Assembly: GCA_965250285.1 (NCBI GenBank)
Contig: OZ252299.1
Coordinates: forward strand, 3,168,001-3,232,000
Reading direction: 5' to 3'
Length of the DNA stretch: 64,000 nucleotides
Source of the DNA: Myxococcota bacterium
GTDB lineage: Bacteria; Myxococcota_A; UBA9160; UBA4427
Part shown: positions 19,094 through 41,891 of the stretch, in pieces
Layout: every line of letters begins with the position of its first letter
How positions within the stretch are numbered: position 1 is the stretch's first letter
Program-made: the position numbers and the translations under genes
Notes under the pieces: generated by a model
What the model was told of the DNA's origin: nothing
What the model saw: only the letters and a program-made list of their open reading frames with translations
Database searches by the model: none

Positions 19094-19216
19094 TGGAGCA
19101 CGAGACCAGATTCGAACTGGCATCCCCTTCGCACACCAGACATGCCGTTCCGGCATGTCCGGCGCGCTCATACGATCTGCTCCCTCATCGGTCGCAGATC
19201 GCCCTCAAGTTGGCAA
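19094..19216 (-). repeat. tRNA-Gly-linked unit C, truncated at anticodon-loop heptamer; att-like boundary
   Basis: 28 nt identical to tRNA 3' end; similarity stops after TTGGCAA (19210-19216). Confidence 0.92.
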
Positions 19217-19800
19217 AGCGAAAGAAGCGTGAGGGAGGACAGACACTTACGCTCTCGAGTCGGCAGATCGCGGCAGGGGATGACACTCAGCGGCAGCAGG
19301 CACGTCACCGAACGGCTAGACGTCACCTTACTGCGACCGCCCACACCCTCTGGGAGGGTCCGATCACACTCCCGATGACACTCCCATGGACCGGAGCGAC
19401 GACGCAGCCGGCCAGGCCGATTGGCCCTTTCGACCGTTCTGTTAGGATCGATCTGATCAGATCGAGCGGGATCGGAACGGCGGAGTCCACTCGACCCGAC
19501 TGCCTGGCAGTGTCGGCGAATGCCCTCTCTCGGGATGCTCGTGCGCTCGCGGAGGCCCATCGCGACGTGTCCCGCGCATGCCGCCGCCTTGCGATCGATC
19601 TCGTGCTTGGAGGTCAGGGGCGCTGGCCGGAGCGAATCCGGTATGGCCATCGACTGCGAAAGTTCCGAGAACTCCACGTGAAGTTCTCGGGCTGACGAGC
19701 ATCGGGACTCGGTCCGCCCCCGTAACAGCTGGTTCCTTGCCACGGAACCCTGTACCGACCCGCCGGAATCGAAGACGAAGACCTGGACAGGCACGACTCT

Positions 19801-22497
19801 ATGCATCAAGAACTCCTGAGAACGAAGCTCAATCCCCCTGGTACCGGCAGCCTCCATTTCCGGCGCGAGCGCCTGGTTCGCATCCTGGAAGCGGGTGCGA
19901 GCGATCCTTTCGTGCTCGTCTCGGCGCCAGCCGGCTTCGGAAAGACGACGCTGGTCAGCGACTGGCTCTCGTCATGTGACCGGCCGCATGCCTGGCTGTC
20001 GATCGACGAGCGCGACGGCGACCTCCGGCAATTCCTCAGATACATCGTGGCGGCAGTTCGGACGGCCATTCCCGATGCCCTGCCAACGATGGCGCTGACG
20101 GTGCGAGATTCGCCGCTCCCTCCCGTCGACACGCTGTGCACGACCCTCAGCAACGAGCTCGAAGACCTCGACACACCCATCACTCTGGTGATCGACGACT
20201 TTCATCGCCTCGGGTCGTCGCCCGTGCATGAACTGATGGCCGAGATCGTCACCCGGCCACCCCGGCCGCTCCGGTTGATCCTGATCTCGCGCTTCGACCC
20301 CCCGCTTCCGCTGGCGACATTGCGGGCCCATGGATGGAACACGGAGGTCAGAGCAGAGGATCTTCGCTTCACCCGCAGCGAGTCTGCGCATCTGTTGCGC
20401 GAGCTCGCAGGGGGGGACGTGGGCGATAATGCCCTGGGCAACCTGGAGCATCAGAACGACGGCTGGGCGGCCGGGCTCCAGATGATTGCGGTCTCCCTGC
20501 GCGGCCGCGACGACGCGGATGCCTACCTGCGGAACCTCCAGATCGGGCAGAAGTTCGCCCGAGAGTTTCTGGCGCGCGAAGTGCTCGACGTACAGTCCGA
20601 AGATCTGAGAAACTGGCTGCTCAGAGCCTCCATCGCCGAGCGCTTCTGCGCACCTCTCTGCGAGGCCGTTCAGGATCCGAACGAAAACCAAGCCTCGGGG
20701 ATGAGTGGCGAGGACTTCCTCGCAACGCTCGAGGAACGCGGCTTGTTCGTCATCCCCATGGATGCGACCGGGCGATGGTATCGATTTCATCACCTCTTCC
20801 GCGACCTCTTGCGCTCAGAGCTCGCTGCGCGCTGGAACCCCGAGTCGATCACCGAGCTGCACGAGCGTGCGAGTCGCTGGTTCGCCGAGCAGGGCCTCGT
20901 CGAAGAGGCGCTGGATCACGCGCTGATGCTGGGTGACCCGGCGCTGGCGGTAGAGCTGGTCGCCGAAAACCGACACGCTGCAATGAATCAAGAGGACTGG
21001 CACCGCCTGGGTGCATGGCTCGACCGGCTGCCGGCTGGCAGCGCCACGTCGGATCCGAGGATCATGCTCGCCCGTGGCTGGCATCTCTGCCATATCCCGC
21101 GATTCGAGGAAGCCCTCTCGCTGATCGAGGATGTACGCGCGCTGCCCGCCGAAACACGGGCGTGTCACCGCGGCGTCGAGGGCGAGATCGAAGCGATGGA
21201 TGGCCTGCTCGGCTACATCGGCCAGGGCGTCTTTGGTCGGGACCGCGAGAGAGTCATCCGTCACTGCGAGAAGGCGCTGCTGCAACTCCCAGCAGACTTC
21301 GGGTGCATCCGAGGCTATGCGACCTATTTCCTTTCCTTGTCGCACGCTCTAAGCGGCCAGGGCGAGACGGCTCGCACCATTCTCTGGCGGGCAATGGAAG
21401 AGGACAGTGCGACCGGTGCCGCCTGTCAAGCTCGCGTCCGGAGCGCCCTCGCCCACGTCCTCTTCCGGGCGGGCGACTTGAGGGGGACGCTGGTCGCAGC
21501 ACAACAGCAACTCGACGTGGGGAGTACGCATGACCTCCCTGAAACAGTGCAGATGGCGCGGTCCACGTTGGGATGGTCTCACTATCTGAGGGGTGAGATC
21601 GACCAAGCCGAGGAGCACTTCAAGGCAGGCTCAGCCGCCATCGGAGCCTCGACGCCGGCTCCTCATGCCGAGAGCCACATCGGTCTCGCGCTCAGCAAAC
21701 GGGCTCGGGGAGACGGCGTCGACGCACGCGAGTCCATCGCGTCGCTCACCGCCTCGGCCATCGCGCGCGGCGCGAGCGCCTGGATCGAACACGGGCGCCT
21801 GTATCAGGCCGAGATCGCTCTTCTCGACGGACGGACAGCGGAGGCTCAGGCGCTGCTGAAAGGGATCGAGAAGCCACGCGCCTTCGGCTTCTACTACGAC
21901 GCGGAGCTGACGATCGCGAAGGCCCGCCTGGCAGATGGCGGGGAGGCTGCTCTGAGCGAAGCGGTCTCGATGCTCGAAGCGATGCGACTGCGCCTGGAGG
22001 ACAGACACGACATCATGCGCCTCGGCCCCGTGCTGGCCGTCGAGGCGCTGGTTCATCGGGCCCTGGGTGAAGAGACCGCCGCGATCTCGTTCCTCGAGGC
22101 CTCACTCGCCGCAACCGAGATCGGAGAGGCCATCCAGCCCTACCTCGACCTGGGTGCGCCCATGGCTGCGCTGATGCGAGAGCTCCCTAGCCCGGCGTGC
22201 GACTCGGAACATGCTCGCCGAATCCTCGCGGCCTCGAGCGGCGAATCAGATGGGCAGCCTGCAACTACGGAAAGACGACATCGACCTGAAGAGACCGGAC
22301 TGATCGAGCCGCTCACCAACCGGGAGCTCGATGTTCTGGAGCTCCTGGCCGAGCGATATCGCGACAAGGAGATCGCCGAGAAGCTCGTCATCTCGCCCGG
22401 TACGGTCCGATCGCACCTGAAGCGCGTCTACGGCAAGCTCGGCGTGAGCGGGCGACGAGAGGCGGTGGCTCGGGCCCAAGGCCTCGGTCTCATCTAG
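19801..22497 (+). CDS. MalT-like (STAND ATPase-TPR-LuxR HTH) regulator, copy 1
   Basis: APAGFGKTT, LVIDDFH, GWAAGL, YRFHHLF, EPLTNRELDVL. Confidence 0.93.
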   Translation: MHQELLRTKLNPPGTGSLHFRRERLVRILEAGASDPFVLVSAPAGFGKTTLVSDWLSSCDRPHAWLSIDERDGDLRQFLRYIVAAVRTAIPDALPTMALTVRDSPLPPVDTLCTTLSNELEDLDTPITLVIDDFHRLGSSPVHELMAEIVTRPPRPLRLILISRFDPPLPLATLRAHGWNTEVRAEDLRFTRSESAHLLRELAGGDVGDNALGNLEHQNDGWAAGLQMIAVSLRGRDDADAYLRNLQIGQKFAREFLAREVLDVQSEDLRNWLLRASIAERFCAPLCEAVQDPNENQASGMSGEDFLATLEERGLFVIPMDATGRWYRFHHLFRDLLRSELAARWNPESITELHERASRWFAEQGLVEEALDHALMLGDPALAVELVAENRHAAMNQEDWHRLGAWLDRLPAGSATSDPRIMLARGWHLCHIPRFEEALSLIEDVRALPAETRACHRGVEGEIEAMDGLLGYIGQGVFGRDRERVIRHCEKALLQLPADFGCIRGYATYFLSLSHALSGQGETARTILWRAMEEDSATGAACQARVRSALAHVLFRAGDLRGTLVAAQQQLDVGSTHDLPETVQMARSTLGWSHYLRGEIDQAEEHFKAGSAAIGASTPAPHAESHIGLALSKRARGDGVDARESIASLTASAIARGASAWIEHGRLYQAEIALLDGRTAEAQALLKGIEKPRAFGFYYDAELTIAKARLADGGEAALSEAVSMLEAMRLRLEDRHDIMRLGPVLAVEALVHRALGEETAAISFLEASLAATEIGEAIQPYLDLGAPMAALMRELPSPACDSEHARRILAASSGESDGQPATTERRHRPEETGLIEPLTNRELDVLELLAERYRDKEIAEKLVISPGTVRSHLKRVYGKLGVSGRREAVARAQGLGLI

Positions 22498-22513
22498 CCG
22501 AGCAGAGCGCCAC

Positions 22514-23504
22514 TCAGCTCCCTCCGAGCAGCGGGTTCCCGATGAGCGAAGGGATGACCGGGATGATGTCAAACTTCATCATCGCCACCTTGCCGAACGA
22601 GTCCGGGCTGACCACGGAATACTCGAGCCCAACGTTGATCCGCACTGGGAACTCACCGAAGTTGACCGTCTTTGCGACGCTGATCCCGACCGGCACGGTC
22701 CACTGCTCTCCCTTCGGCTCATTCGCGTTGAACGTGATCGTCGGATCGAACCCGATCTGCCATCCATCCTTCAGGTTGATGTTGAAGTAGTAGAGCATGC
22801 TGAGCTGGCTCAGTTCGGACTTCTGAGTCGGATCGAAGTCGTTTCGATCCGCGACGCGAAAGTAGTACTGCGGCCAGATGAACGCCGTGAAGTGCTTCGG
22901 CGTTGTACCCGAACGTCACGGTTGGTCCGACGCCGACCTGCTGCGACCCGAGCGCGTCATTCGTCGAAGACGGGAAGGAGAAGGTCGGGCCCACTCCGAT
23001 GATCCACCGTCCCGCCGGCGGCGAGACGACGAGTGGCAGCACGATGTCGCCCAGGCCGGCTGCCGACGTGAACTCATCCTGCGCGCCTGTCGGCACGGGT
23101 GTGCTGAGCGTGATCGGAATGACCGGGCGCGTGATCAGCCGCCACTCCTTCTCGCCCTTGCCATGGAGCGGGATCGGCAGTACAGGCTCGAAGAGCAGGT
23201 TGCCGCCGTACTCTGGCCCATCCTCGGCCACGTTCCCGTTGTTGAACGTGAGCTCGAACTCCGTGAACAGCGCCCAGATGTCTGAAGTCGGGTCTGCGAG
23301 CTTGCGGGCAATGTCTCCGAGGCCGCCGTGCTCGGGGTGCTTGTACTCCTTCTTCTCCGGCTTCGCGCCTTCTTGCGCTGCGGCCGCCTCGTCTGTCGCT
23401 CCGTCGGTCTCGGCAGCTCGTGCGACGGTGGCCAGCGCGGGTAAGAACAATAGGACCATCATGAAGAATGTGATCTTGATCCGCGGCTGAGCAGCGAAGG
23501 TCAT
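22514..23504 (-). pseudogene. Outer-membrane beta-barrel/transporter-like protein with one extra base near 22898
   Basis: Signal peptide, EPVLPIPL, GLGDI, GVGPT; removing one base in GCC-G-AAG joins to KHFTAFIWPQYYF...WTVPVG; may be an assembly error. Confidence 0.7.
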
Positions 23505-23598
23505 GAGGTGATCTCCGTCAGTTGGCCCTGCCGCGTCGGGCAGTGCGGACCATTTTCGACTCACGATGTCGGAGGTCGAGGCGTCTTCAGGACGGCGA

Positions 23599-23997
23599 TC
23601 AGCCGCTGCCCTCGACGAACGCCTTGAGCCGCGTCAGAGCCGCGCCCCAATGGGTGTTGCAGTACCCCATGCTGGGGTCGCCATCCTTCCACGCGCCGTC
23701 GCTGAAGTTGACGAGCGTGCCGCCATCTACGTCGGACAGCTCGAACGTGATCTTCTTGCCGACGTCGCCAGGCCCCTCGACTCCTTCCTGGACGAGTCGC
23801 GTGTCCTCGACCATCTCGAGGGTTTTCCAGGCAAAGCTGAGATGGGGCTTGGCCTTCATCGACACGGTGGCGCCGACGGCAATTTCGCCCTCGACCCCGG
23901 CGTAGTGCCACTTCTCGAAGTCGGTCACGTTCGTGAGAGCTTCGTAGACCTTGTCTCTCGGCGCGGCGATCTTGATCGTGTGGTGAAGCGTCGTCAT
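23599..23997 (-). CDS. SRPBCC/START domain protein
   Basis: IKIAAPRDKVYEALT, CNTHWGAALTRLKAFVE. Confidence 0.88.
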   Translation of the reverse strand: MTTLHHTIKIAAPRDKVYEALTNVTDFEKWHYAGVEGEIAVGATVSMKAKPHLSFAWKTLEMVEDTRLVQEGVEGPGDVGKKITFELSDVDGGTLVNFSDGAWKDGDPSMGYCNTHWGAALTRLKAFVEGSG

Positions 23998-24008
23998 CGT
24001 GGATCTCC

Positions 24009-24251
24009 TCACTTCTTTCGCAGCGGGGGAATCGCCGGCATCATCGGAAAGTTGTCCAGGTCGTTCGGATCCAATTTGAACGTCGGGTCGTACTTGTCCC
24101 GGTCCGTCATGTAATCGGGCTCTGTGCTGCGGAAGGTGTAGTTGCAGGTCTTGCACATGTAGACGTCCCACACGCCCTTGACAGGCGACGAGAACACGAC
24201 ATCGAGCGTCTTGGAGCCGCAGCGGGGACAGATCGTGAAGGCATTGGCCAT
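24009..24251 (-). CDS. Hydroxyarylic acid decarboxylase subunit D (BsdD/VdcD family)
   Basis: ICPRC...SPVKGVWDVYMCKTCNYTFRSTEP, directly downstream of a C subunit. Confidence 0.9.
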   Translation of the reverse strand: MANAFTICPRCGSKTLDVVFSSPVKGVWDVYMCKTCNYTFRSTEPDYMTDRDKYDPTFKLDPNDLDNFPMMPAIPPLRKK

Positions 24252-24263
24252 GGGTCGAGTCTC

Positions 24264-25712
24264 CTACTTGCTTGCGTTCGCGAGGTTCTGAATCAAGGCT
24301 TGCACCTTCGGCAGCCACTCCTCGGCTTCGGGCGGATTGTTGATCTGCATCGCGTAATCGCCGTGATCGTCCGGCGGGGCAGGTGTCGCCGCGTCCAGGA
24401 TGATCTTGTCTGTGATGCCGACCGGATCGGACCCCGGGTCGAGTGCGAGGACCGAGTGGTTCGGCACGACCATGCAGTCGAACCTGGGGTTGAACTTCGT
24501 CGACAGTGCCCACATGACCTGCGGCAGGTTGAAGGGGTCGACATCGGCATCGACGATGATGACCACCTTCGCGTAGCCGGTGCCGTGCGGTGTCTGCAGC
24601 ACCGACATCCCGACTGTCTTGGCGAAGCCGCCAACTCTCATCTCGGTCGACACGATCACCACCAGGCCGTGGGTATAGAGCGCGTTCACGTCGACGACTT
24701 CGGGGAACGAGTCCTTGAGCTGCACGTAGAGCGCGGCACCCGTGTTGATGAACATGTAGTCGATCTCGGTCCAGGGCATTCCGATCGCGCAGTACTCGTA
24801 GATCGGATTGTTCCGGTGATAGACCTTCTTCACGTTGACCGAGCACATGAGTCGACAGCCCGAAAGATGACCCGTGAACTCGCCGTAGGGGCCGTCGGGC
24901 ATTCGGACGCGGGGCAGCACCTCGGCCTCGATCACGATCTCGCTGCCCCAAGGCACCTGCAGGCCGTTTTCCATCGTCACCACCGGGTACGGTGCGCCAT
25001 CGGCCATGGCGCTGCACATCGTGTACTCGTCCTGGTCGTACAGCAGCGGCATGCTGGCGATCAGCGGGACGATCGGCTCGTTCCCCATGGTGATATAGAT
25101 CGGTAGAGGCTCGTTTCGCTCTTCGGCGGCCTTGAAGTGCAGCGCGATGTCGTGATCCGGCACCATCTGCATGCTCAGATGGTTCGTCCCCTGGACCTGG
25201 ATCCTATACATCCCGACGTTCTGATCGTCGAAGCTGTCCATGCGGTCGGGGTGGCGAGAGACGACCGAGGACTTGTTGAGGAAGAAGCCGCCGTCCCCCG
25301 GGTTCAGACGGAAGAGCGGCAACAGCTCGAACAGATTGACGTCGTCGCCTTCGATCACGTTCTCTTGCCAGGGCGCGCTGTCCATCTCTTCGATGCTGCC
25401 TTTCTCGAAGTTCTGGTAGCGGCGGTTGAACTCGCGCGCGATGTCCTTGAGCGGAGTGTCCTTCGGCATGCCGAAGGCGAGCGCGATGTTCGGCCACGAC
25501 CCGTGCACGTTCGACACGAGCTTGGCGTCGCTCGTGTACCCCTTGATGTTGTCGAAGGCGATCGCGGGTGCCGTGTCACCGACCCCCTTGTTGTTTGCGC
25601 TCAGGATCGCGGAGATGTCGGGTTCGGGCAGAACCGGATCTGTCATGTGAATCATCTGCCCTTCCTTTTCCAGTAGCTCGAGGAATCCTCTGAAGTCCTT
25701 GTGCGCCATCAT
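24264..25712 (-). CDS. UbiD-family hydroxyarylic acid decarboxylase subunit C (BsdC/VdcC-like)
   Basis: NVHGSW, NVGMYR, DGPYGEFTGH, GMPWTEIDY, NALYTHG, DVDPFNLPQVMWA. Confidence 0.92.
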   Translation of the reverse strand: MMAHKDFRGFLELLEKEGQMIHMTDPVLPEPDISAILSANNKGVGDTAPAIAFDNIKGYTSDAKLVSNVHGSWPNIALAFGMPKDTPLKDIAREFNRRYQNFEKGSIEEMDSAPWQENVIEGDDVNLFELLPLFRLNPGDGGFFLNKSSVVSRHPDRMDSFDDQNVGMYRIQVQGTNHLSMQMVPDHDIALHFKAAEERNEPLPIYITMGNEPIVPLIASMPLLYDQDEYTMCSAMADGAPYPVVTMENGLQVPWGSEIVIEAEVLPRVRMPDGPYGEFTGHLSGCRLMCSVNVKKVYHRNNPIYEYCAIGMPWTEIDYMFINTGAALYVQLKDSFPEVVDVNALYTHGLVVIVSTEMRVGGFAKTVGMSVLQTPHGTGYAKVVIIVDADVDPFNLPQVMWALSTKFNPRFDCMVVPNHSVLALDPGSDPVGITDKIILDAATPAPPDDHGDYAMQINNPPEAEEWLPKVQALIQNLANASK

Positions 25713-25803
25713 CTCTACTCCCACGCAGTCACTTTGGATCGCTCTCGCTGCCGAAGCCGACGTTCGGCTTTTTCGAGTCGAGAGCCTTGTTCGTCGAGAA
25801 CGC

Positions 25804-25878
25804 CTATTGGTCGTCGAATCCCCACCGAGACCAGTTGTCGAGCACCTTTTGCTTGATCGGCTCGGGGATGTGGCTCGA
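25804..25878 (-). pseudogene. Remnant C-terminus of an additional Fdc1-like UbiD
   Basis: PEPIKQKVLDNWSRWGF versus PDPVRQKVLENWSRWGF at the end of 26789-28315 (13/17 identical). Confidence 0.8.
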
Positions 25879-25936
25879 GCGCGAGCCGCGCACGGTTCGG
25901 GATGGAGTTCGCTTCGAGGAGATCCTCTCGGCTCGA

Positions 25937-26347
25937 TCACCCCCCACCCTGCGCCTTCCATGCCGCCTCTTCGGGGCTGCCGGGGACGGGAAGGATCTTG
26001 CCCCCCTCGATGCAATGGCTTGCATCGACTTCGCCCATCACGATTTCGATCTCGCCGGAAGCACACCCGAGGGCGTCGGCGAACGCCTTGCGGATCCCGG
26101 TCTCGATCTTGGCCTTGTCCTCGTCGGTCCTTCCCGCGCGGATCGTGGCGTTCAGGTAGGCCAGCTTTCCTTCCGGCAAATCGGGGAACCCGACCTCGGG
26201 GTCGGCCTCCTCGGAGAAGAAGGCATTCACGAACTGGCGAGGGGCTCCCGTCACATCCACATGGGTCGTGAAGATCCCCTCGGCCATTCTCGAGCGCTGA
26301 TCCTCGGTGGTCGCGCCCGGTTTGACCGTCGTCAGATAGATCGGCAT
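25937..26347 (-). CDS. Tautomerase superfamily, cis-CaaD-like
   Basis: Pro1, His28, IRAGRT arginine pair, CIEGGKILPVPG. Confidence 0.85.
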   Translation of the reverse strand: MPIYLTTVKPGATTEDQRSRMAEGIFTTHVDVTGAPRQFVNAFFSEEADPEVGFPDLPEGKLAYLNATIRAGRTDEDKAKIETGIRKAFADALGCASGEIEIVMGEVDASHCIEGGKILPVPGSPEEAAWKAQGGG

Positions 26348-26392
26348 GAGTCTCCCCTCTCGGTCCGGATCGGGTCCGGACATGTCGGCGCT

Positions 26393-26704
26393 CTAGGTCG
26401 TCACTGTGACTTCGTTCGAGTCGACCCCGGTCTTCTCGACCCACAGGTCACTGAGCGACTTCAGGAGCTTCACACGGTCGTCGTAGGCGATGTCGTTCGG
26501 GACGTCGCAGCGAATCACGGTCGTCGTGCTGGGGTTGCCGCCGGTCCAGGCGAAGCCCTGGTCGACGGACCGCCAGAAGACGGGCGTCGAGGCTGCGTCC
26601 TGACCGAACTGGTCCACCGCGATCCTCTGGATGCCTTCCACCAGCTCGTGTTTTCGCGCGTCGGCCGCCTGGCCCCCTTGGACCAGCACTCGATACTTGG
26701 TCAT
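26393..26704 (-). CDS. Tautomerase-fold protein lacking Pro1
   Basis: Two beta-alpha-beta-like units (RKHELVEGI; RVKLLKSLSDLWVEKTGV..EVTV); begins MTKY; AAGGAG RBS. Confidence 0.6.
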   Translation of the reverse strand: MTKYRVLVQGGQAADARKHELVEGIQRIAVDQFGQDAASTPVFWRSVDQGFAWTGGNPSTTTVIRCDVPNDIAYDDRVKLLKSLSDLWVEKTGVDSNEVTVTT

Positions 26705-26733
26705 CTGTGTTCTCCTTGGAGTCGGTCCGCCTT

Positions 26734-26767
26734 CGTGCCGAGCCACTCGTTCGAGTGACTCGGCACG
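26734..26767 (-). other. Intra-operon stem-loop after ubiD
   Basis: CGTGCCGAGTCACTCG-AA-CGAGTGGCTCGGCACG, one G-U pair, no U tract. Confidence 0.6.
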
Positions 26768-26788
26768 CGCTACAGCGGTCGTCGAGCT

Positions 26789-28315
26789 CTACTTGGCGAA
26801 TCCCCATCGTGACCAGTTCTCGAGCACCTTCTGCCGGACGGGGTCCGGGTAGTTCGTCTCGAAGGTCAGGATGTTCTCCAGCTGCTGCCCGGTCTTGCCT
26901 TCGATGGGCAGGCAGCTGTACGCCGTCAGGCCACTGCCGTGGATGAAGTCGCTCTGGCTGTGATAGGCCTCGAGCCCCGTCCCGACGACGTTCTCGATCT
27001 CGGGGAAGTAGAACGTGCTCCGCGTCGGGTGATTCCGGGTCGCGAAGGCCCAGCACACCTCGAGGGCGCTATCGGGATCGACGTCCTCGTTCACCACGAT
27101 GATCTTCGTGGTGATGTTGCCCACGTGCTGCGACCAGAGCGTCGTGCCGATCTTCCGGACGAACTCCTCCATGCCCAACCCGGTCTTCTGATGCCAGTCG
27201 TTGTCGACGCGAATGACCAGCCACGCCAGGGCAGACTCCATCGTCAGCATGCTGTCGATCACGGGGAGCCCCTCCTTCTGCAAGGCGACGGTGACGTCGC
27301 CCGACATGAAGAAGCCCATGCCGACGGTGCACGAGTCGATCGGCTTTCCCGGCACCGAGACGGGGAAGAGCGGGTTGTTGCGGTACGTGACGTGGGTGAC
27401 GGTCACCCGTGCGCGGTTCGCCGTATCGAAGGGCAGGTAGCCCTGATACTCGCCGAACGGCCCTTCCACCTCCATCGCATCCTTCGAGACGAAGCCTTCG
27501 AGGACGATCTCGGAATCGGCCGGCACCAACAGGTCGTTCGTGTCGCACTTGACCATGCGGATGCCTTCGCCGAGCAGCCGGCTGGCATAGTCGTACTCGT
27601 TCGTGAAGTCGGGCGCCTTCGCCGACGACTGCGTGAGAACGACCGGCGGCACACCGAACGCCATCGCCCACGGCGTGTCCTGCCCTTCCTCGGTCCACTG
27701 ATCGTGCACCATGCCGTTGTGCTGCGAAGAGAGCCAGAGACCCGTCATCGTGGTCTCGTTCACGATCATCGCGCGATTGATCGACCAGCTCGTCCAGCTC
27801 TCGTCTGGAGTCCGAACGATGTTGACGCCCGCGGTTCCGATGTAGCGAGCAGCGTCGCCGTCATGACAGAGCGGCGCGGGGATCTTGTAGATGTCGATCT
27901 CGTCGCCGGTCCACGTGTTCTCCTTGCACGGCGCATCCGACGCATCGACGATGACCGGCTCGTGCACCTCCGTGCCCTCTCGAGCCTCGAGGTACGCCTT
28001 CTGGATGTCCATCAGGCCGGTTTCGGGCGGAAGGCCGAGCATGGCCGCGAGGCGGCACCACTCCCGCCCTGGCGTGCTCGACTTCGTGTACCCGATGTCG
28101 CAGGCGCGGAAGCCTTCGCCCTCTGGCGTGCCCTTGATGTTGTTGAAGATCGGCGTCGGAGCCAGCGTCTCGTAGGAGTGACGGCAGACTGCACCCATCT
28201 CGAGATGCGTGTCGATCTCGTCATCGATCTCGACCGCCTCCCCCATCTTCTTGAGGTTCTCGATGTATTCGCGATAGGTGCGCGGGATCTTTGCTCGGTC
28301 GATCGAAACTGACAT
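26789..28315 (-). CDS. UbiD-family decarboxylase, Fdc1 (ferulic/cinnamic acid)-like
   Basis: WTSWSINR, EGPFGEYQGY, WAFATRNHP, C-terminal KVLENWSRWG. Confidence 0.9.
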   Translation of the reverse strand: MSVSIDRAKIPRTYREYIENLKKMGEAVEIDDEIDTHLEMGAVCRHSYETLAPTPIFNNIKGTPEGEGFRACDIGYTKSSTPGREWCRLAAMLGLPPETGLMDIQKAYLEAREGTEVHEPVIVDASDAPCKENTWTGDEIDIYKIPAPLCHDGDAARYIGTAGVNIVRTPDESWTSWSINRAMIVNETTMTGLWLSSQHNGMVHDQWTEEGQDTPWAMAFGVPPVVLTQSSAKAPDFTNEYDYASRLLGEGIRMVKCDTNDLLVPADSEIVLEGFVSKDAMEVEGPFGEYQGYLPFDTANRARVTVTHVTYRNNPLFPVSVPGKPIDSCTVGMGFFMSGDVTVALQKEGLPVIDSMLTMESALAWLVIRVDNDWHQKTGLGMEEFVRKIGTTLWSQHVGNITTKIIVVNEDVDPDSALEVCWAFATRNHPTRSTFYFPEIENVVGTGLEAYHSQSDFIHGSGLTAYSCLPIEGKTGQQLENILTFETNYPDPVRQKVLENWSRWGFAK

Positions 28316-33092: not shown

Positions 33093-33174
33093 GGTGTTCT
33101 CCGTTGTGTGATGTGCGATTGAGTGGCGACTCCGAGTCGCGCGGCGTGTCGCAACCGGACAGGCCCAGTGAACC

Positions 33175-33230: not shown

Positions 33231-33253
33231 GTCGGCGTGCGGGGGATGGCCAT

Positions 33254-33975: not shown

Positions 33976-36684
33976 TTGAATCCGGATGTTCTGAAATCCA
34001 AGCTCAACCGTCCGTATGTCGGTCGCGAGCACACGGTCCGGGAGCGGCTCTGGCATCAGCTCGACGGCGCCGCGACCGCCCCGTTCGTGCTCGTGTCGGC
34101 CCCCGCCGGGTTCGGCAAGACGACCCTGGTCAGCAGCTGGCTCGACACGCGCGGAGAACGCTTCGCCTGGCTCTCGGTCGATGCGGGTGATGACGACCTC
34201 CGGACTTTCCTCCGCTATCTGCTTGCCGCGGTGCGCACCGTCGCGCCCGATACAGCCCGGCGAACCGGCGTGTTGTTGCAGGAGCCTGCCCTCCCCCCGG
34301 TGGCCGAGCTGAGCGCAGCGCTCAGCAACGACCTCGACGAGCTGGAGATGCCATTCCACCTGGCGCTCGACGACTACCATCACATCAAGGCGAGCGAGGT
34401 GCACGAGCTCGTCTCGTCGCTCGTCATGCGCCCCCCTCGAACACTGCGGCTGATACTCCTCGCGCGCCATGACCCTCCCCTGCCGCTGGAGACGCTCCGA
34501 GCTCAGAACAGAATCGCGGAAGTCCGTGCCCAACAGCTTCGGTTCACGCGAGAAGAAGCTGCGGACATGGTCGCCACACTGTCGGGGACAGTCCCCGGAG
34601 ATCGAGCCCTCGACAACCTCGAGGTGCAGAACGACGGCTGGGCCGTTGGGCTGCAACTGATCTCGCTGGCGGCTCGGGAGCGAAAGGATGTCGATGCGTA
34701 CCTGCGTGATCTGCAGGTGGGGCCACGTACGACCCGGGACTATCTGGCTCGTGAGGTGCTCGACGCTCAGCCGCCGCAGTTGCAGGCGTGGCTCCTCAGG
34801 ATCTCGATTCTGGACCGCTTCTGCGCCCCGTTGTGCGAGACCCTCAAGCCCACAGCCGACGGAGAGCCAGACGATGGATCGGACTTCCTCGCGCTCTCGG
34901 GAGCGGACTTCGTCGCTGAGTTGGAGCATCGCGGCCTCTTCGTGATCGCACTCGACGACCAGAACGAGTGGTTTCGGTTTCACCACGTGTTCCGCGATCT
35001 ACTCAGCAGCGAGCTGAACGGACGAGAATCTCCGGGCGGTGTTCTAGACCTCCACAGCAGCGCCAGCGCGTGGTTCGCCGAGCACGACTTCGTCGAAGAG
35101 GCATTGGATCACGCGTGTACGGCAGGCGACATGGATTCGGCGACTTCGATCGTCGCCGAACGTCGTCACGTAGCGACGGGCCTCGAAGACTGGCACCGCC
35201 TGAACGCATGGCTCGAGCGACTCCCGCCCGCGGACCTCGAAGCCGATCCGAGACTCGTTCTGGCCCGAGCCTGGTTCGCGTCGTTTTGCGCTCAGTTCGA
35301 TCTCATGATCGAGTACATGGTCAAGGCAAGCGGCTTCGAGCTCGACAGCCGCCCGGACGGTCCGAGCCTCGAAGGAGAGATTCGGGCGCTGGAGGCCTCG
35401 ATGTACTTCATCGGCCTCGATGCGCCAGGCGTCATTCGCAGCGCAGAGCGGGCGCTCGAGCTACTGCCCCTCGACTTCGAATGCGTGCGGGGCTACGCCA
35501 TATTCCTGCTCTCCTGGGGCTACAGTGCGAGCGGACGCGGTCGCGAGGCGCGTGAAGCCCTCTGGCGTGAGATGGATGCGGGACGGAATGCGGGGCCCGC
35601 GTTCCGCGGGCGCGTTCGCGGCGGCCTGGCCCACGTGTTGCTGCGAGAGGGAGATCTCGCCGGCAGCCTGACCGCCGCCCGCCAGCTGTTCGAGATTGGC
35701 GAGGAGCATGACCTCCTCGAGACCGTCATCATGGCGCGGTCTTTCATGGCGTGGGCACACTACCTCCGCGACGAGCTCGAAGAAGCGGAGGCGCACTTCA
35801 AAGCGATCCTCCTGACCAGACGCTCGGCCATTCATATCGGCCACGTGGAGGGACACATCGGGCTGGCGCTATGCATGCAAGCTCGAGGGCACTACGAGAA
35901 GGCTCGACAGTGGGCCCAGGAGATGACCGCCCTGGGCATCGCGCGGGATCAGCCCATGTGGATCGAAGAAGGACGCATCTACGAAGCAGAGATCGCGCTG
36001 CGTCAGGGCGGGGTCGACGAAGCGAAGACCCTGGTCGAGCACCACCAGGCACTTCAGCCGCGTTGGGGATTCATGTACGAGCCCCAGCTCACTCGCCCGC
36101 GACTGTGGCTCGCCGAGGGCACACCTGCGTCTCTCGAACGGGCGAAGGCGGAGCTCGCGCCGATCCGCGAACGCTTCGAGGCATCGAACGATCGGATGCG
36201 CCTGGCCGAAGTGCTGGCCGTGGAGGCCCTGGTCGAGGATGCGCTCGGCCATGCGGAGATCGCGCGCGATCGCCTGTCGATGGCGCTTCCGCTCACGCGG
36301 CAGGGGGGAGCCATACGGCCCTACCTCGACCGCGGGCCTTCGATGGCATCGTTGCTGCGAAAGGTCGAGCTGCCACCCGAAGAGTCGGAGCAGGTCGACC
36401 GGATTCTCCAGGCTCTGGGAAGCACGACGGCGACCGAACGATCGACTTTGCAAACGGAGCGCCCGAGCGGCGAAGAGCTCGTGGAGCCTTTGACCAACCG
36501 CGAGCTCGATGTTCTCGAGCTACTCGACGAGCGCTTCCGAGACAAGGAGATCGCGGAGAGGCTGTCGATCGCACCGGGGACCGTGCGATCCCACCTCAAG
36601 TCGGCCTACCGCAAGCTGGACGTGAACGGTCGGCGGAGCGCCGTCGAGCGAGCGCGCGAGCTGGGGATCTTGAAGAAGAACTGA
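33976..36684 (+). CDS. MalT-like (STAND ATPase-TPR-LuxR HTH) regulator, copy 2
   Basis: APAGFGKTT, ALDDYH, FRFHHVF, EPLTNRELDVL; collinear with 19801-22497. Confidence 0.93.
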   Translation: MNPDVLKSKLNRPYVGREHTVRERLWHQLDGAATAPFVLVSAPAGFGKTTLVSSWLDTRGERFAWLSVDAGDDDLRTFLRYLLAAVRTVAPDTARRTGVLLQEPALPPVAELSAALSNDLDELEMPFHLALDDYHHIKASEVHELVSSLVMRPPRTLRLILLARHDPPLPLETLRAQNRIAEVRAQQLRFTREEAADMVATLSGTVPGDRALDNLEVQNDGWAVGLQLISLAARERKDVDAYLRDLQVGPRTTRDYLAREVLDAQPPQLQAWLLRISILDRFCAPLCETLKPTADGEPDDGSDFLALSGADFVAELEHRGLFVIALDDQNEWFRFHHVFRDLLSSELNGRESPGGVLDLHSSASAWFAEHDFVEEALDHACTAGDMDSATSIVAERRHVATGLEDWHRLNAWLERLPPADLEADPRLVLARAWFASFCAQFDLMIEYMVKASGFELDSRPDGPSLEGEIRALEASMYFIGLDAPGVIRSAERALELLPLDFECVRGYAIFLLSWGYSASGRGREAREALWREMDAGRNAGPAFRGRVRGGLAHVLLREGDLAGSLTAARQLFEIGEEHDLLETVIMARSFMAWAHYLRDELEEAEAHFKAILLTRRSAIHIGHVEGHIGLALCMQARGHYEKARQWAQEMTALGIARDQPMWIEEGRIYEAEIALRQGGVDEAKTLVEHHQALQPRWGFMYEPQLTRPRLWLAEGTPASLERAKAELAPIRERFEASNDRMRLAEVLAVEALVEDALGHAEIARDRLSMALPLTRQGGAIRPYLDRGPSMASLLRKVELPPEESEQVDRILQALGSTTATERSTLQTERPSGEELVEPLTNRELDVLELLDERFRDKEIAERLSIAPGTVRSHLKSAYRKLDVNGRRSAVERARELGILKKN

Positions 36685-36797
36685 GCGCACCGGCGGGGGC
36701 GGCAAGCGCCGCAGCTGACGGTCATCGCGATCGCCTGCGAGGCGCAGCCCGACCTCGACGTCCCGTGGCTCGGCGGGGAGGCCACATCGGCAAGCGT

Positions 36798-37676
36798 GTG
36801 CTGAGACGGGCTGAAAGGCACTTTGTCCTTCATCGTCGCGATGGAGTTCGTGATGGCGACCGTGAGCAGCGCGCCCACGTCCGGGCCCGACGGATCGTCC
36901 CGACGAGAGCGGGGGCGCAAGGCCTCGCCTACCTCTGGGCACTGCTCGGGTGCCTCTCGGGTGCATGCGCGCTCGAGCCTCCGGGTGAACCCACGCTCGG
37001 CCTGTTCGGCAACGCCGACCCCCGCGTCTTCTACGGGCGCGAGATCGCCGAGCCTCTGATCGCGCTCACGATCGACGACGCGCCCGATCGCGAGTCGACG
37101 CCGCGCATCCTCGACGCGCTCCGCGCGCACGATGCCCGCGCGACCTTCTTCGTCATCGGTGATCAGGTACCCGGCAACGAGATGCTCCTTCGACGGATCG
37201 TCCGGGACGGGCACGAGATCGGCAATCACATGGCGAGCGACGTCAAGAGCGTCGATCTCGACCCGAGCGAGTTCGAACGGCGGCTGGTGCACACGCAAAG
37301 AGAGCTCTCACGCTTCGCGCCGGTGCGCTGGTTTCGCCCCGGCTCCGGCTACTACAGCACCGAGATGCTCGACATCCTCGACCGCCACGATCTGCAGTGC
37401 GCCCTCGGCAAGGTGTACCCGCTCGACGCACAGCTACGTTGGGGCTGGCTCGTCAGATCCTGGATCGGCTGGCGCAAGAGGCCAGGCGCCGTCGTCATTC
37501 TGCATGATCGAGGTTCCCGGGGCCTACGCACGGCGGCCACCTTGGAGCGTGTGCTGCCCCGTCTTCGGGAGGCCGGCTATCGCGCCGTCACACTCAGCGA
37601 ACTGGCCGACTGGTCCGGAGCTGAGCCCCCCGCTTGGGACGCCGGCGTCGCCCCCCACCCAACGCACGGCGGCTAG
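36798..37676 (+). CDS. Polysaccharide deacetylase (NodB) family protein; start uncertain
   Basis: LTIDDAP, ATFFVIG, HEIGNH, WFRPG, VILHD; in-frame GTG at 36798, or ATG at 36853 with a frameshift. Confidence 0.8.
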   Translation: MLRRAERHFVLHRRDGVRDGDREQRAHVRARRIVPTRAGAQGLAYLWALLGCLSGACALEPPGEPTLGLFGNADPRVFYGREIAEPLIALTIDDAPDRESTPRILDALRAHDARATFFVIGDQVPGNEMLLRRIVRDGHEIGNHMASDVKSVDLDPSEFERRLVHTQRELSRFAPVRWFRPGSGYYSTEMLDILDRHDLQCALGKVYPLDAQLRWGWLVRSWIGWRKRPGAVVILHDRGSRGLRTAATLERVLPRLREAGYRAVTLSELADWSGAEPPAWDAGVAPHPTHGG

Positions 37677-37682
37677 ACGGGC

Positions 37683-39053
37683 TCAGTTCATCGTCGACGA
37701 TGACTCTTCCTCGCGGAGCTCCCGCCTGCGTCGATCCCAGGCTTCGCTCGACTCTCTCAGCATCTCCCGACGAAGCCCCTCGATCTCGCGAAATCTCTCG
37801 GCGGCATCGATGGTGCGATTTCGGGCATTCTCGATGTACTCGTAGTAGATGCCTCGATCTTCGAGAAAGCGTTTGCTCCGGACGGCGTCCGTCCAGCTCT
37901 TGGCTTCCTCGCGACCCTCGAGGATCTCGTCGTATCTCGTCACGAAGTAGCGGAGATTGGCGTCGATCCGGAGGTAACGACCATCGGCGAGCAGCTTCTG
38001 AGCATGCTTCCGCGTGCCATTGCTGAACCAGCCACCGAGCACGAACATGCGCTGCTTCGTGTCGTAGAGCGAGTTGATCTGAAGAACCGGGAGCGTGACG
38101 AGCAGCGCGCCAGGCACGGCAGGCAGCCACTGATGCTCGGTCAGGCCCTTCCAGCGTAGGTCGTCTCGCTGGATCTTCGGAAAGTCCTCGATCGGGTACT
38201 CGTTCGACAGCATCGCGAGATCGATGACGGTGTTGGCGGGCACGGCCAGATTGAAGAACTGACGGAGCTTCGTCGCGCGCACCGACTTCGGCTTCCACAC
38301 CCCCGCTGCGGCGAGCGCGTTGTGTAGCGTGTGGACGCAGTTGTCCGAGAGCCCGTTCCAGTCGTAGTCGGCCTCGCCGTTGTAATATTCTTCGTTGAGG
38401 CCGTTCAGGTAGTCCATCGCCGCAACGAGCATCTCCTCGCGGAGCGGCAGTCGCGCGCAGTAGGCTGTCCGCCCGAATCGAACCGCGAAATCGGTTCCAA
38501 TGCCGTCGGTGCGCACGAACTCTTCGAGCGAGGGCGCTTCGGAGGCATCACGGATCGGGCGCAGCTCGATGCCGTCATAGAGCCCGAGATCGACCGCGCG
38601 CTGCACCGCCTGATCGAAGCGCTCCTGGTCGAGCATCTCGAACGTCTCGACACCGCCATTGAAGAAGAGGAAGCGAGTCGGGGTCGCCACCCAGTTGGCG
38701 TTCTTGAACCAGCGATTCACGCTCACGCCCGCGCCGTGCTCCGGATCTCGTGTGTCGCCGGTTGCGTACCTGCAGCGACGAAGCCTCGGGTAGTCGGCTG
38801 TCTCATCGACGCAGGCGCCCTTGATGTACATGGCCGCGTGCCCGGGCGATCCGCCCATGACTCCGTCCCTCGGCCGGTATTGCGTGACGGCACACAGCTC
38901 GACGTAGTGGTCGACGATCTCCTCGTAGATCGCGTCGGGCTCACTGAGCGGCGCGATCGCCTCCCGCGGACCGCGGAAGAGTTCCCCCACCGCGCAGCCG
39001 AGCGACTGAGAGACGAGACAGACAGCGACGAGCAGAAGGATGCGAGCTTGCAT
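37683..39053 (-). CDS. Putative lipoprotein with permuted papain-like (DUF4105/Lnb-like) His...Cys motifs
   Basis: SLGC lipobox; SPGHAAMY; YDWNGLSDNCVH. Confidence 0.55.
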   Translation of the reverse strand: MQARILLLVAVCLVSQSLGCAVGELFRGPREAIAPLSEPDAIYEEIVDHYVELCAVTQYRPRDGVMGGSPGHAAMYIKGACVDETADYPRLRRCRYATGDTRDPEHGAGVSVNRWFKNANWVATPTRFLFFNGGVETFEMLDQERFDQAVQRAVDLGLYDGIELRPIRDASEAPSLEEFVRTDGIGTDFAVRFGRTAYCARLPLREEMLVAAMDYLNGLNEEYYNGEADYDWNGLSDNCVHTLHNALAAAGVWKPKSVRATKLRQFFNLAVPANTVIDLAMLSNEYPIEDFPKIQRDDLRWKGLTEHQWLPAVPGALLVTLPVLQINSLYDTKQRMFVLGGWFSNGTRKHAQKLLADGRYLRIDANLRYFVTRYDEILEGREEAKSWTDAVRSKRFLEDRGIYYEYIENARNRTIDAAERFREIEGLRREMLRESSEAWDRRRRELREEESSSTMN

Positions 39054-39295
39054 CGGCAGAATGGTCTCCGGTTTCGAAATGTTCTCGAGGCTGACCGTAG
39101 AGGTCGACCCATACCGCGCCTTCCCGAGTGCGCGTCGTAGTCGGGGTTGCCGCATGAGAGGACGGTTGCGACACGGCCTCATGCTCGACTGAAGATCCTG
39201 ATGACTCGGCGCTCGTCGCTGCCTCACGTCACGTGCGGGCGGCGTGAGATCGAGCGTCGACCATCACGCAAGCAGCGGATGATCGGACGCCCAGC

Positions 39296-39903
39296 TCAGT
39301 TTCTCCGATCGAGGTAACCAGCGGGGAGCTCACTCGGAGCACAGTTGATGACTTCGTCGTTGTCGCGTCCTCGATCCTCCATGAAGGTGATCTCGGCGTA
39401 GTCCCAGTTCACGAACATGGGGAGCACGGGACCCTTGTCGCGGTGTTCCCGCATCGCGGGAAGGTGCTCGTTCTGGTGGACGGTCGTGACCTCCGGATTC
39501 TTGGTGATCCATTGCGCCATCGTGAAGAACCCGTGAATGAACCGCTTTGCGAAGTTGAAGTTGAGCACGCAGATGGATCCGGTCGGTTCGCACCACGCAA
39601 CCTTGTAGTTGCCGTCCCCCAGATTGGTCGTCAGCAGTCGCTGGTGCGTCGTCCATCGCTCCGCAACCAGCCCGCTCGAGATGCGGTAGTCGCCGAGCTT
39701 CTCGTTCCGGAAGTAGAACTCGTAGTGCCATCCGTTCGCGCATGTGTAGATGATGTGTTCCCCACGATCTCGCTCAGATCATTCGCTTCGGGCGGCTCGG
39801 TCTTGACCGGCTGCTGGGGATCCGTGTTGTCCTGCCAGTCGCAAACGGGGTTGTCGGTGGGCTGCCAGCTCGAGTAGTCCGTGACGATCACCTTGTCGGC
39901 CAT
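39296..39903 (-). pseudogene. Cofactor-free phenolic acid decarboxylase (PadA/PadC family), one base missing near 39760
   Basis: Shifted frame reads HIIYTCANGWHYEFY...DYRISSGLVAERW...YKVAWCEPTG...HQNEH...AEITFMED.G.DNDEVI; locus length 608 = 3n+2. Confidence 0.85.
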
Positions 39904-40061
39904 GCTCTTTCTCTCCTTGGGCGAGGCTTGCCTCGTCTTCCATCTGAGCGCCGTTGTCCTCGCTACGACTGTGGCAGCGCACCGAGTAGGGGCGGCGACG
40001 GCAGTGGGCTCCAGATGCCCACCCGCGGCTCAGCTCCAATCTATGGGGCCCGCGAGTAATC

Positions 40062-40118
40062 AAGTTAGAGAGGACCGATCGCAGGAGACTCTCTCACTTT
40101 GAGGGGTTTTTCGGAGGG
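40062..40118 (-). promoter_or_regulatory. Putative activator box plus -10 for pad
   Basis: CCCTCCGAAAAACCCCT upstream of TAACTT; spacing within 1 nt of the other two. Confidence 0.5.
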
Positions 40119-40432
40119 TCGGCGCCCTCGTGGATGCTCACGCAGCTTCGAAGCCGAGCGTTGGCGAGGCGCTACTCCGCGCCTGACGCACCCTTCGCGA
40201 ATCGATCCAGCTCGAGCGCGAGAATCGAACAAGTGGAAGAGACCACCTGGTGAGGTGGCGCCACACATCCGAGTGGGGCAGCCAGCGGCTACGCGAGGCC
40301 GACGCCGAATCAGCTGCTGGAGGCCTCAACGCCTCGGGTCCCCGCGCGGAGTGATCGGATCCGGAACGAGACACGGGCCTGACGCTGCTCCTCCGCACCG
40401 ACCGACCGATCAAGCTGACGGGCCCGATGACG

Positions 40433-40455
40433 TGAAGCACGAGACCAGACTCGAA
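40433..40455 (-). repeat. Degenerate tRNA-Gly 3'-end copy
   Basis: TGAAGCACGAGACCAGACTCGAA, 21/23 to the tRNA end. Confidence 0.8.
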
Positions 40456-40605
40456 GGGGCGTTATTGCCGCAGGCGTCGTCGAAACACGCAGTCGCGCCA
40501 TCCACGAGACGGCACAGGCGGAGAGGCCCCGTAGTGTGGCAGTTGCCGAAGCTTGATCATCTTCCTCGTGACAGCCGCCCGAACCTTCGCAGGCTGCGGA
40601 ACTCT

Positions 40606-41247
40606 TCACTTGGAATCAGAACGGTCGGAGTAGCCATCCCTGATGCGGTGCAGCAGCGGAGCGAGCAATGGGAAGGCCATCCACACGAACGGGGCGCGGC
40701 GTGGTGCGGCCCATCCAGCCAGGCACGCGACAACGGTGATCACGAGCATCAGAATCGTCGACGACCGCGGCGAGGTGACCGCGCGGTTGGTCAGGGCCTG
40801 TTGGACGAAAAAAGAGCGTTCGACGCTCCACATGCGGTCCAGGGCGATTCCGCCCATGATCAGCGTCAGGGAGAACACGACCACGGACCACGGATTGTTG
40901 CGGTGCTCCGCGATCAATGCGGTGGTGAAAGGAATGACGGACACAGCGGCCAGGAAGGCGAAGTTCCAACCCATGAATGCCCTCGACCGGTGACCACCCC
41001 CTACGAGCAGTGCGTGCTGGACGATCCACAGTCGCGCCAGGATCGCGAAGCTCAAGACCCAGGCCAGGAAGTGAGGAAGCTGCCTCAACAGCGCGCGTTC
41101 GGTGAACTCGCCGGTCGCTTCAGGCTCGAGGTTCAGGGGATCGAGGGCGGGCAACTTCAGATCGAGCACGAGAAGGGTCAGCGCAATGGCGAAGACCCCA
41201 TCGCTCAACGCGGCAAGGCGAGACGAGTCGAACCGAGCCTGCCTCAT
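40606..41247 (-). CDS. TMEM175 (DUF1211) family K+ channel
   Basis: RLAALSDGVFAIALTLLVLDL, SFAIL..LW..QH, IPFTT. Confidence 0.9.
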   Translation of the reverse strand: MRQARFDSSRLAALSDGVFAIALTLLVLDLKLPALDPLNLEPEATGEFTERALLRQLPHFLAWVLSFAILARLWIVQHALLVGGGHRSRAFMGWNFAFLAAVSVIPFTTALIAEHRNNPWSVVVFSLTLIMGGIALDRMWSVERSFFVQQALTNRAVTSPRSSTILMLVITVVACLAGWAAPRRAPFVWMAFPLLAPLLHRIRDGYSDRSDSK

Positions 41248-41416
41248 CCCCTGATCGCCATATGGAACCCCTCCATCCATCGAAGGCTAGCTTGCCGTTG
41301 ACGTCTTAATCAGGCGGCCCCCTGACTGCGCGGGGGTGGTCGTGGATCGCGTGGTGCGGCTATGTGAAGAGAGCCGCTCCGGAAAGCTAAAGGCCTGGCG
41401 GGGTGACTTCTTGACA

Positions 41417-41675
41417 TGGAGCACGAGATCAGATTCGAACTGGCGTTCCCTTCGCGACGGCGCGCGGGGCTGGCGCGCGAACTGGCATCCCCTTCGCACA
41501 CTGGGCGCGCCCTTTCGGGCACACCCAGCGCGCTCATACGATCTGCTCGCTCATCGCTCGCAGATCGCCCTCAAGTTGGCATGCCTTGAGCGCACGAGCC
41601 TCTAGCCCGAAACCGGCTTCGAGCTCTGGATACAAAAACGGCCCGCCCCACTACGTGGGACGAGCCGATTTTGTA
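41417..41675 (-). repeat. tRNA-Gly-linked unit B (259 bp, internal 42-bp duplication/insert)
   Basis: Matches unit A; CGAACTGGCnTnCCTTCGC-type segment at both 41436 and 41478. Confidence 0.92.
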
Positions 41676-41891
41676 TGGAGCACGAGACCAGATTCGAACT
41701 GGCATTCCCTTCGCACATCAGTCCGCCGCTTCGCGGCGAACCGATGCGCTCATACGATCTGCTCGCTCATCGCTCGCAGATCGCCCTCAAGTTGGCATGC
41801 CTTAAGCGCACGGGCCTCTAGCCCGAAACCGGCTTCGAGCTCTGGATACAAAAACGGCCCGCCCCACTACGTGGGACGAGCCGATTTTGTA
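41676..41891 (-). repeat. tRNA-Gly-linked 216-bp unit A
   Basis: Abuts tRNA CCA; ends in an exact 28-nt copy of the tRNA 3' end. Confidence 0.95.
41847..41891 (-). terminator. Terminator-like hairpin after tRNA, repeated at 41631-41675 and 19049-19093
   Basis: CGGCTCGTCCCAC-GTA-GTGGGGCGGGCCG-TTTTT. Confidence 0.7.

Follow-up and report, generated by a model that had tools for sequence, protein, structure and literature searches.

Nested hairpin inserts in displaced tRNA-Gly(GCC) fragments at the ends of a Myxococcota genomic island: candidate very small mobile elements

Results

Organization of the tRNA-Gly(GCC) locus

The analyzed window is a 64,000-nucleotide stretch from a Myxococcota bacterium (assembly GCA_965250285.1, contig OZ252299.1, forward-strand positions 3,168,001 to 3,232,000), in which we characterized a series of hairpin-bearing repeat units on the minus strand; coordinates below are window positions unless another contig is named. 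The repeats began directly behind an intact tRNA-Gly(GCC) gene, the only gene with this anticodon among the 61 ARAGORN calls in the 6.25-Mb single-contig genome, and five 3' fragments of the gene lay downstream on the same strand. In each unit, we recognized the 3' half of tRNA-Gly(GCC), displaced and left as the attachment scar of an island, with a 78-nt insert in its variable loop. This context had been overlooked by the initial annotation, which dealt with the hairpins. Read in the direction of the tRNA, a unit was composed of an anticodon-arm remnant up to G46, a first hairpin, a 5-nt linker, a variable hairpin, a purine linker and the T-arm with CCA. A terminator-like hairpin and a short arm preceded units A, B and D, while unit C formed the closing end of a 22-kb, lower-GC cargo block of metabolic and regulatory genes. 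The features are as follows.

41892..41967, minus strand: intact tRNA-Gly(GCC), the target of the island
41848..41890, minus strand: terminator-like hairpin with a GTA triloop; identical copies at 41632-41674 and 19050-19092
41784..41798, minus strand: unit A, anticodon-arm remnant of tRNA-Gly to G46
41755..41783, minus strand: unit A, first hairpin of the module in the variable loop, conserved; stem of 8 bp, tandem GA/GA, 2 bp and a 5-nt loop
41713..41749, minus strand: unit A, 17-bp hairpin; a GC-GNA-GC mini-hairpin split by a 30-nt insert (41715-41744)
41676..41703, minus strand: unit A, T-arm and acceptor 3' strand with CCA, 28/28 identical to the gene
41539..41582, minus strand: unit B, anticodon remnant and first hairpin
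41496..41533, minus strand: unit B, 17-bp hairpin; inner insert of 31 nt
41417..41486, minus strand: unit B, T-stem followed by the tRNA 3' end (1 mismatch); T-loop broken by an extra hairpin piece with a repeated linker
40433..40459, minus strand: worn relic of another tRNA-Gly 3' end
19236..41416, no strand: island cargo without an integrase; GC 64%, against 68-70% outside
19173..19235, minus strand: unit C, right arm of the island, anticodon remnant and first hairpin; compensatory change from GC/GC to CC/GG
19131..19167, minus strand: unit C, 17-bp hairpin; inner insert of 30 nt
19094..19121, minus strand: unit C, tRNA-Gly T-arm and 3' end, 28/28 identical
18880..19000, minus strand: unit D, decayed copy with an intact first hairpin, a broken second stem (18915-18951) and a worn 3' end

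Structure and pairing of the variable hairpins

The three hairpins quoted in the initial annotation (41713-41749, 41496-41533 and 19131-19167) were found on the minus strand as described. With ungapped pairing, all 17 positions were paired in each of them, with 14 Watson-Crick and 3 G-T pairs, 13 and 4, and 14 and 3, respectively, and every wobble was a G-T pair on this strand. The annotation had placed such a hairpin in each repeat unit, which held for three units; in the fourth (18880-19092), the corresponding 37 nt at 18915-18951 formed only 9 of 17 pairs, included four A-C mismatches and folded as DNA with a z-score of -2.0. Full pairing likewise extended to only part of the wider homologue set: 8 of 21 distinct long hairpins were fully paired, and the other intact ones had 1-3 mismatches. 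Over all 21 long hairpins, unit D included, we counted 271 Watson-Crick, 42 G-T, 7 A-C and 23 other positions. The 91-nt insert stretches folded as DNA well below shuffled sequences on the minus strand (z-scores of -5.2, -6.3 and -6.3) and less so on the plus strand (-2.8, -2.8 and -3.5); the corresponding values for RNA folding were -7.5, -9.0 and -8.0.

Covariation of the pairing was borne out in 16 aligned homologous inserts, where 13 of the 17 pairs changed on both sides and 91% of the cells were paired. None of 500 shuffles reached this value, a result that is not a probability, the inserts being mutually related, and alignments slid out of register gave 22-39%. The variable part was a core of 29-33 nt. 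In 14 intact cores, decayed unit D being excluded, 140 positions were Watson-Crick pairs, 20 were G-T, none was A-C and 8 were other; counted as distinct events, there were 7 G-T and 0 A-C (p = 0.016). The wobble bias noted before was thus kept on the tRNA-sense strand.

The variable hairpin is the innermost layer of a nest of inserts

We found that the variable hairpin is the innermost layer of nested inserts, in that a hairpin of about 30 nt splits the mini-hairpin of a 48-nt, two-hairpin module. The nearly constant flanks of the earlier description are actually the two halves of this older GC-GNA-GC mini-hairpin. Covariation of a single ancestral stem within one locus was not supported, as the cores are separate inserts of about 30 nt that are present or absent and whose 5' arms were 8-83% alike. 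The layering was evident from an alignment of one island arm of this genome, where it was empty, with its filled counterparts from four relatives. In all four, the 48-nt module lay in the variable loop with the GC-GNA-GC mini-hairpin at its end; in two, a 30-nt piece split the mini-hairpin and produced the 17-bp stem, while the other two were without the 30-nt core.

Overall, the inserts measured approximately 20-80 bases and interrupted leftover tRNA half-copies at island ends and some transposon copies. Modules in the T-loop were about 48 nt long, were separate from the variable-loop module and either stood alone or formed tandem series of up to four. At the junctions in the variable loop, GGG was repeated, which may reflect a duplication of 3 nt. 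The modules consisted of side-by-side hairpins without the element-spanning terminal inverted repeats that are a feature of miniature inverted-repeat transposable elements. A coding role on the opposite strand was rejected, as no reading frame was maintained across the insert lengths (remainders of 0, 1 and 2 in 29, 12 and 21 of 62 inserts).

The loops are of the DNA type

RNA hairpin loops favour GNRA and UNCG. Among 89 distinct hairpins in the 62 inserts, we found 23 cGNAg, 7 cGNYAg and 4 cGNABg loops, one GNRA and no UNCG loop; the expectation for cGNAg was a mean of 0.6 in shuffled sequences, the other strand had 2, and 26 of 791 perfect hairpins genome-wide, on either strand, had such a loop. 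The d(GNA) loop with a C-G closing pair is described as very stable in DNA (PMC3201870). The insert loops are thus of the DNA type and favour folded single-stranded DNA (ssDNA) over RNA. Among the three window hairpins, only the copy at 41713 had a C-GNA-G triloop; the other two loops were G-GAA-C and C-GAAA-G. The initial annotation had held folded ssDNA, as for attC or repetitive extragenic palindromic (REP) sequences, to be as plausible as an RNA role; loop use tips this towards ssDNA, while a likeness to attC or REP in defining features was not supported.

Distribution across genomes

A strict scan with the first hairpin gave five matches in this genome, all in tRNA 3' fragments, and one in the reversed genome. 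Including two looser copies near the tmRNA islands, the genome held 7 copies, located at Gly-GCC, Arg-CCG and Arg-TCG remnants. In relatives, these modules likewise occupied halves of the same three tRNAs. Interrupted Gly halves numbered 40, in 17 of the 225 genomes of the class (reversed pattern, 0), and a motif scan of the class gave 25 matches in 13 of the 225 genomes, of which 21 were clearly and 1 was probably tRNA-derived and 3 were chance. When all loci were compared, 54 of 54 filled halves were without a 5' half, none of 36 intact genes was interrupted and 20 displaced halves were clean, although the filled share is inflated because most loci were chosen for being filled, and the homologues are related, so that the counts are not independent.

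Further afield, 16 of the 22 loci matched in metagenomes were true and 6 belonged to one chance open reading frame (ORF) family; a species-genome scan gave 8 loci, of which 6 were true (4 in Myxococcota) and 2 were chance. A sample of 261 genomes of the phylum gave 6 matches, all inside the order, with a pattern tied to the tRNA-Arg sequence of the lineage, so that absence elsewhere is not shown by it. The T-loop-module pattern proved too loose over 193 genomes, as its control also matched widely and one of the 30 loci examined was a true tRNA fragment. In viral contigs, all 23 matches to a loose pattern were chance on inspection, and two tighter patterns gave 0 and 0. The search of the stems against phages and mobile elements that the annotation had proposed returned no match in 50,697 phage records. 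An origin of the stems as spacers or guides was rejected: besides the lack of a phage match, the plasmid matches (28 nt, E 0.4, in 6 records) were chance only, and matches to the integron region were at most 16 nt long.

Related structures were observed at other tRNA-type sites. Four tandem islands lay at the tmRNA gene (G000:C1:2525000-2605800), and several of their left ends carried tRNA-Arg(TCG) remnants, one clean and two filled. In three loci (L313, L316 and L317), 'echo' units of 100-140 nt behind tRNA-Arg(TCG) ended in the last ~20 bases of the gene and contained GNA-loop hairpins; one echo-unit module was common to a T-loop insert in another genus (L314).

Islands and their integrase

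In relatives, the clean counterpart of the units was an uninterrupted half, running from the anticodon loop to CCA and repeated at the ends of tandem islands, and it corresponds to the displaced fragment of the Islander scheme (PMC4383910). No cognate tyrosine integrase was found in the window or among 120 ORFs of the relatives' islands. However, one integrase clade occurred in 16 of 68 genomes of the family (none in this genome at E<=1e-30). It was located at Gly-GCC/CCC and Arg-TCG/CCG/TCT, with 13 of 23 loci adjoining such an intact gene, and its targets include all three tRNAs with filled fragments. The clean displaced halves began at the anticodon loop, and one derived half was joined at this loop to four different left contexts, which suggests that integrase traffic reshuffles filled halves between island ends.

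The reading frame of the cognate integrase (L082:17370-18740 in G046; also L187-L209) continued into the tRNA 3' half on its antisense strand; the attachment site therefore lies in the integrase C-terminus, and integration alters the end of the protein. The attachment site of myxophage Mx8 is likewise located within the C-terminus of its integrase gene. The short units of the window (41792-41891, 41576-41675 and 18994-19093) had a left arm fused to the anticodon loop, and the position of the junction was fixed. In two further genomes (G021 and G027), the short-unit arm stopped at the point of the fused junction and was followed by cargo, which hints at a second recombination site.

The island cargo encoded two MalT/LuxR regulators, UbiD/UbiX, a luciferase-like monooxygenase, GST, NUDIX and TMEM175 proteins. 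The two regulators are paralogues (19801-22497 and 33976-36684) about 14 kb apart. Two small ORFs of 80-90 aa (31285-31557 and 33254-33496) shared a 232-nt repeat with 71% identity.

A second target in IS110-family elements

A 22-nt module gave 17 matches in 9 of 193 genomes (reversed pattern, 5): 10 in tRNA halves, 5 at ribosome-binding sites of IS110-family elements, 1 elsewhere and 1 by chance. The match outside tRNA and IS110 (L220, G146:C6) was followed by further GNA-loop hairpins. At the ribosome-binding site, 30 IS110 loci comprised 22 empty, 7 filled (with at least 3 different hairpins) and 1 unreadable. Additionally, three IS110 copies had inserts inside the transposase ORF, one of which was the 48-nt two-hairpin module. 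In a 19-row tree built with the site removed, the filled copies stood among empty ones. One filled copy retained an open ORF and had a filled relative, 92% identical, in another family. IS110 is less likely as the source of the module, as 22 of 29 readable copies were without it and IS110 is absent from this genome. Most IS110 left ends were likewise without the module. An AAC-N1-2-GAGG run was common to the IS110 site and the variable loop of tRNA-Gly; runs of this type number 59 to 206 in this genome, so sequence alone cannot explain the choice of target. An intact IS110-family element (L212:1377-2954) had a 150-nt left end and a long right end and was found in 39 of 225 class genomes.

Discussion

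Proposed mechanism

We propose, with a probability of about 0.6, that the inserts are very small mobile elements that fold and move as ssDNA through an enzyme whose existence we infer, and that persist only in dispensable mobile DNA. The proposal builds on direct observations of nesting, location in tRNA scars, empty and filled sites, the same modules in IS110, covariation, strand bias and DNA-type loops. In the sequence of events that we envisage, tyrosine-integrase islands would integrate at the anticodon loop and displace the 3' half of the tRNA gene. The modules may then insert after a G-rich run (the variable loop or the IS110 Shine-Dalgarno sequence), in the T-loop and in the loops of one another. 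If folding is required for mobility, stem sequences could drift and yet stay paired, and copies would carry different cores. Insertions into working genes would be purged, which would leave the inserts visible only in dispensable mobile DNA, and the integrase would presumably shuffle filled halves between island ends afterwards. A by-product is also predicted: an island that excises through a filled half would regenerate the single-copy tRNA in a broken form; breakage of the sole tRNA-Gly(GCC) would lock the filled islands in. The likeliest mobilizer would be an enzyme that cuts and joins ssDNA, of the HUH or small GIY-YIG type, supplied in trans by passing mobile elements.

Several results weigh against this proposal, in addition to the inflated filled share. 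Taken by itself, the G-T bias is equally compatible with RNA, and folding energy does not discriminate between RNA and DNA. The IS110 tree was mostly unresolved, with 4 of 16 inner branches well supported. The genome contained no Y1/RAYT protein (PF01797), no IS110 and only two GIY-YIG ORFs, both multi-domain; PF01797 was present in 2 of 5 relatives, and neither copy was flanked by modules. When 1206 six-frame segments beside filled sites were clustered, none recurred as a mobilizer, the recurrent ones being attachment-arm read-throughs, a housekeeping neighbour and one transposase remnant. Precise excision was not seen, as four read runs contained no joint that skipped an insert, and the sole long read joint that goes back was unit C mapping onto unit A. 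Copy number was low (7 per genome), and GNA hairpins were not in excess over the reversed genome, unlike REPs. Finally, all 20 loci with a short left arm (overlapping loci counted) had a filled half and none a clean one, which also fits an insert that is a fixed part of a mini-island.

Alternative explanations

This last result is accommodated equally well if the insert is a functional ssDNA signal that serves as a priming site, as a shield against nucleases or as an aid to recombination. Such a signal would sit in the attachment arm of mobilizable islands without an integrase and travel with the island, with crossover occurring 3' of the insert, at the T-loop or acceptor junction. The DNA-type loops and the covariation agree with such a role, as does the fact that similarity to the host gene is highest over the last 18-28 nt, whereas derived changes in the anticodon remnant are shared. 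Additionally, all 7 copies in this genome lay on the lagging-strand template (3 loci, co-directional) and 3 head-on fragments were clean, as was 1 co-directional fragment; this replication-strand pattern is weak, since 32 of 46 tRNA genes are co-directional regardless. We nevertheless consider a signal unlikely, because homologous arms were often empty (the 20 clean halves), the type, position and number of the inserts are free to vary, IS110 ORFs are also broken by these modules, and one derived half has four left contexts at the anticodon loop.

It is less probable again that a host or resident element plants the hairpins in mobile DNA as a taming system, which would block island excision and damp or break IS110 transposases. 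Both known targets are indeed mobile-element DNA, no fewer than three different hairpins had entered the IS110 ribosome-binding site, and 4 of 4 well-kept Gly halves in the window were filled. However, purging from working genes yields the same pattern, the filled IS110 copy with an open ORF and its filled relative speak against taming, and no host gene was tied to the inserts.

Lower still do we rate the production of structured, tRNA-like small RNAs from the units through read-through and CCA-end processing. Such RNAs would suit the sense-strand G-U bias, the strong RNA folding and the intact T-arm and CCA of units A and C, and one 168-nt contig of depth 3 in an RNA library covered a relative's insert. 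That contig may be DNA, and the RNA-library contigs, which came from other samples, mostly covered tRNA of other organisms. Moreover, a terminator-like hairpin precedes the units, the loops are neither GNRA nor UNCG, Rfam matched only tRNA, and the T-loops are often broken by further inserts. Least probable, and already weakened, is neutral damage without a mobile unit, by polymerase template switching and palindrome correction at hairpin-prone attachment scars: some inserts are plain perfect palindromes, the anticodon arms of some units are now palindromic and the targets are dispensable, but the same multi-motif modules recur in three tRNA types, many genera and IS110, their lengths cluster (30-nt cores, 48-nt modules), and fold-back yields perfect Watson-Crick stems rather than one-strand G-T pairs and GNA loops.

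Implications

Provided that the mobile-element proposal is true, it would account for how islands without an integrase become permanent, and island finders that seek intact displaced tRNA fragments would misplace or miss island ends. We put forward a broader version very tentatively, with the odds well against it: the inserts may belong to an undescribed group of enzyme-orphan micro-transposons that, as ssDNA, home on the loops of tRNAs and on runs resembling Shine-Dalgarno sequences, nest within one another and act as a ratchet that domesticates mobile DNA, through lethal island excision and throttled IS110 transposases, across both prokaryotic domains.

Comparison with known systems

The movement of palindromic repeats shorter than 100 nt is an old open question. 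In 2008, Elhai et al. reportedly described nesting and compensatory change in the small dispersed repeats (SDR) of Nostoc. The inserts analyzed here were likewise shorter than 100 nt and palindromic, with compensatory change, empty and filled homologous sites and nested insertion. SDR are palindromic repeats of approximately 20-30 nt that are described as probably mobile and as having a preferred target motif (PMC2884548, PMC5861425), which the inserts share. They differ from SDR in sequence and phylum, in having fewer than 10 copies per genome, in loops that point to DNA folding and in their targets, which are the variable loop and T-loop of tRNA in attachment scars and the IS110 ribosome-binding site.

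With the REP/REPIN/bacterial interspersed mosaic element group and its RAYT enzymes, as presented in PMC3733652 and PMC3116915, the inserts have in common short imperfect hairpins, strand asymmetry, clustering and presumed movement as ssDNA. In contrast, the genome has no RAYT, the inserts are neither abundant nor dispersed between genes, and all copies lie in tRNA fragments. The tetramers GTAG and CGTC occurred anywhere in 21 and 31 of the 62 inserts, respectively, and no fixed terminal tag was visible in the alignment.

The Ssn GIY-YIG ssDNA nucleases and their NTS/SRM repeats (PMC11893778) offer a hairpin repeat that is recognized on one ssDNA strand and a plausible type of partner enzyme; tRNA is not mentioned in the main text of that paper. 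The degenerate SRM motif was found in 0 of 62 inserts and 34 times in the genome, against 40 in the reversed genome. Single-domain GIY-YIG proteins were absent from this genome, and none of four short GIY-YIG frames in relatives adjoined a tRNA or a module. An AT-rich contig with an SLX1-like GIY-YIG and a RING-like ORF (L134, G128:C61) is probably viral or eukaryotic DNA binned into that genome.

Integron attC sites share strand-specific folded ssDNA and a variable sequence with a kept structure. The genome has its own chromosomal integron (G000:C1:5462588-5489500), with an integrase (TIGR02249, 438 bits against a cut-off of 265) and, after it, an array of over 30 related attC sites, each about 130 nt long. 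The inserts are unlike these sites, lie 2.2 Mb from the integron and have no gene cassettes between them, and attC cores (R''/R'; RYYYAAC, GTTRRRY) were present around 0 of 62.

Tyrosine-integrase islands at tRNA genes, displaced 3' fragments, tandem arrays and integrase-less remnants are shared with the islands described for Islander and the tycheposons (PMC4383910; bioRxiv 10.1101/2020.12.28.424599). In those islands, the reported damage consists of a small deletion close to the 3' end, whereas structured, nested insertions into the fragment were found here. The literature that we searched, with subscription papers and supplements outside the search, held no account of hairpin inserts in displaced tRNA fragments. 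In the present case, copy number is low, the target is fixed and known (the variable loop and T-loop of tRNA), alleles occur both empty and filled, IS110 provides a second target and a cognate integrase clade is available, which makes both the requirement for ssDNA folding and the predicted excision lock directly testable. Taken together, the inserts are best filed with the very small mobile palindromic repeats, to which they add a new target range of tRNA scars and IS110.

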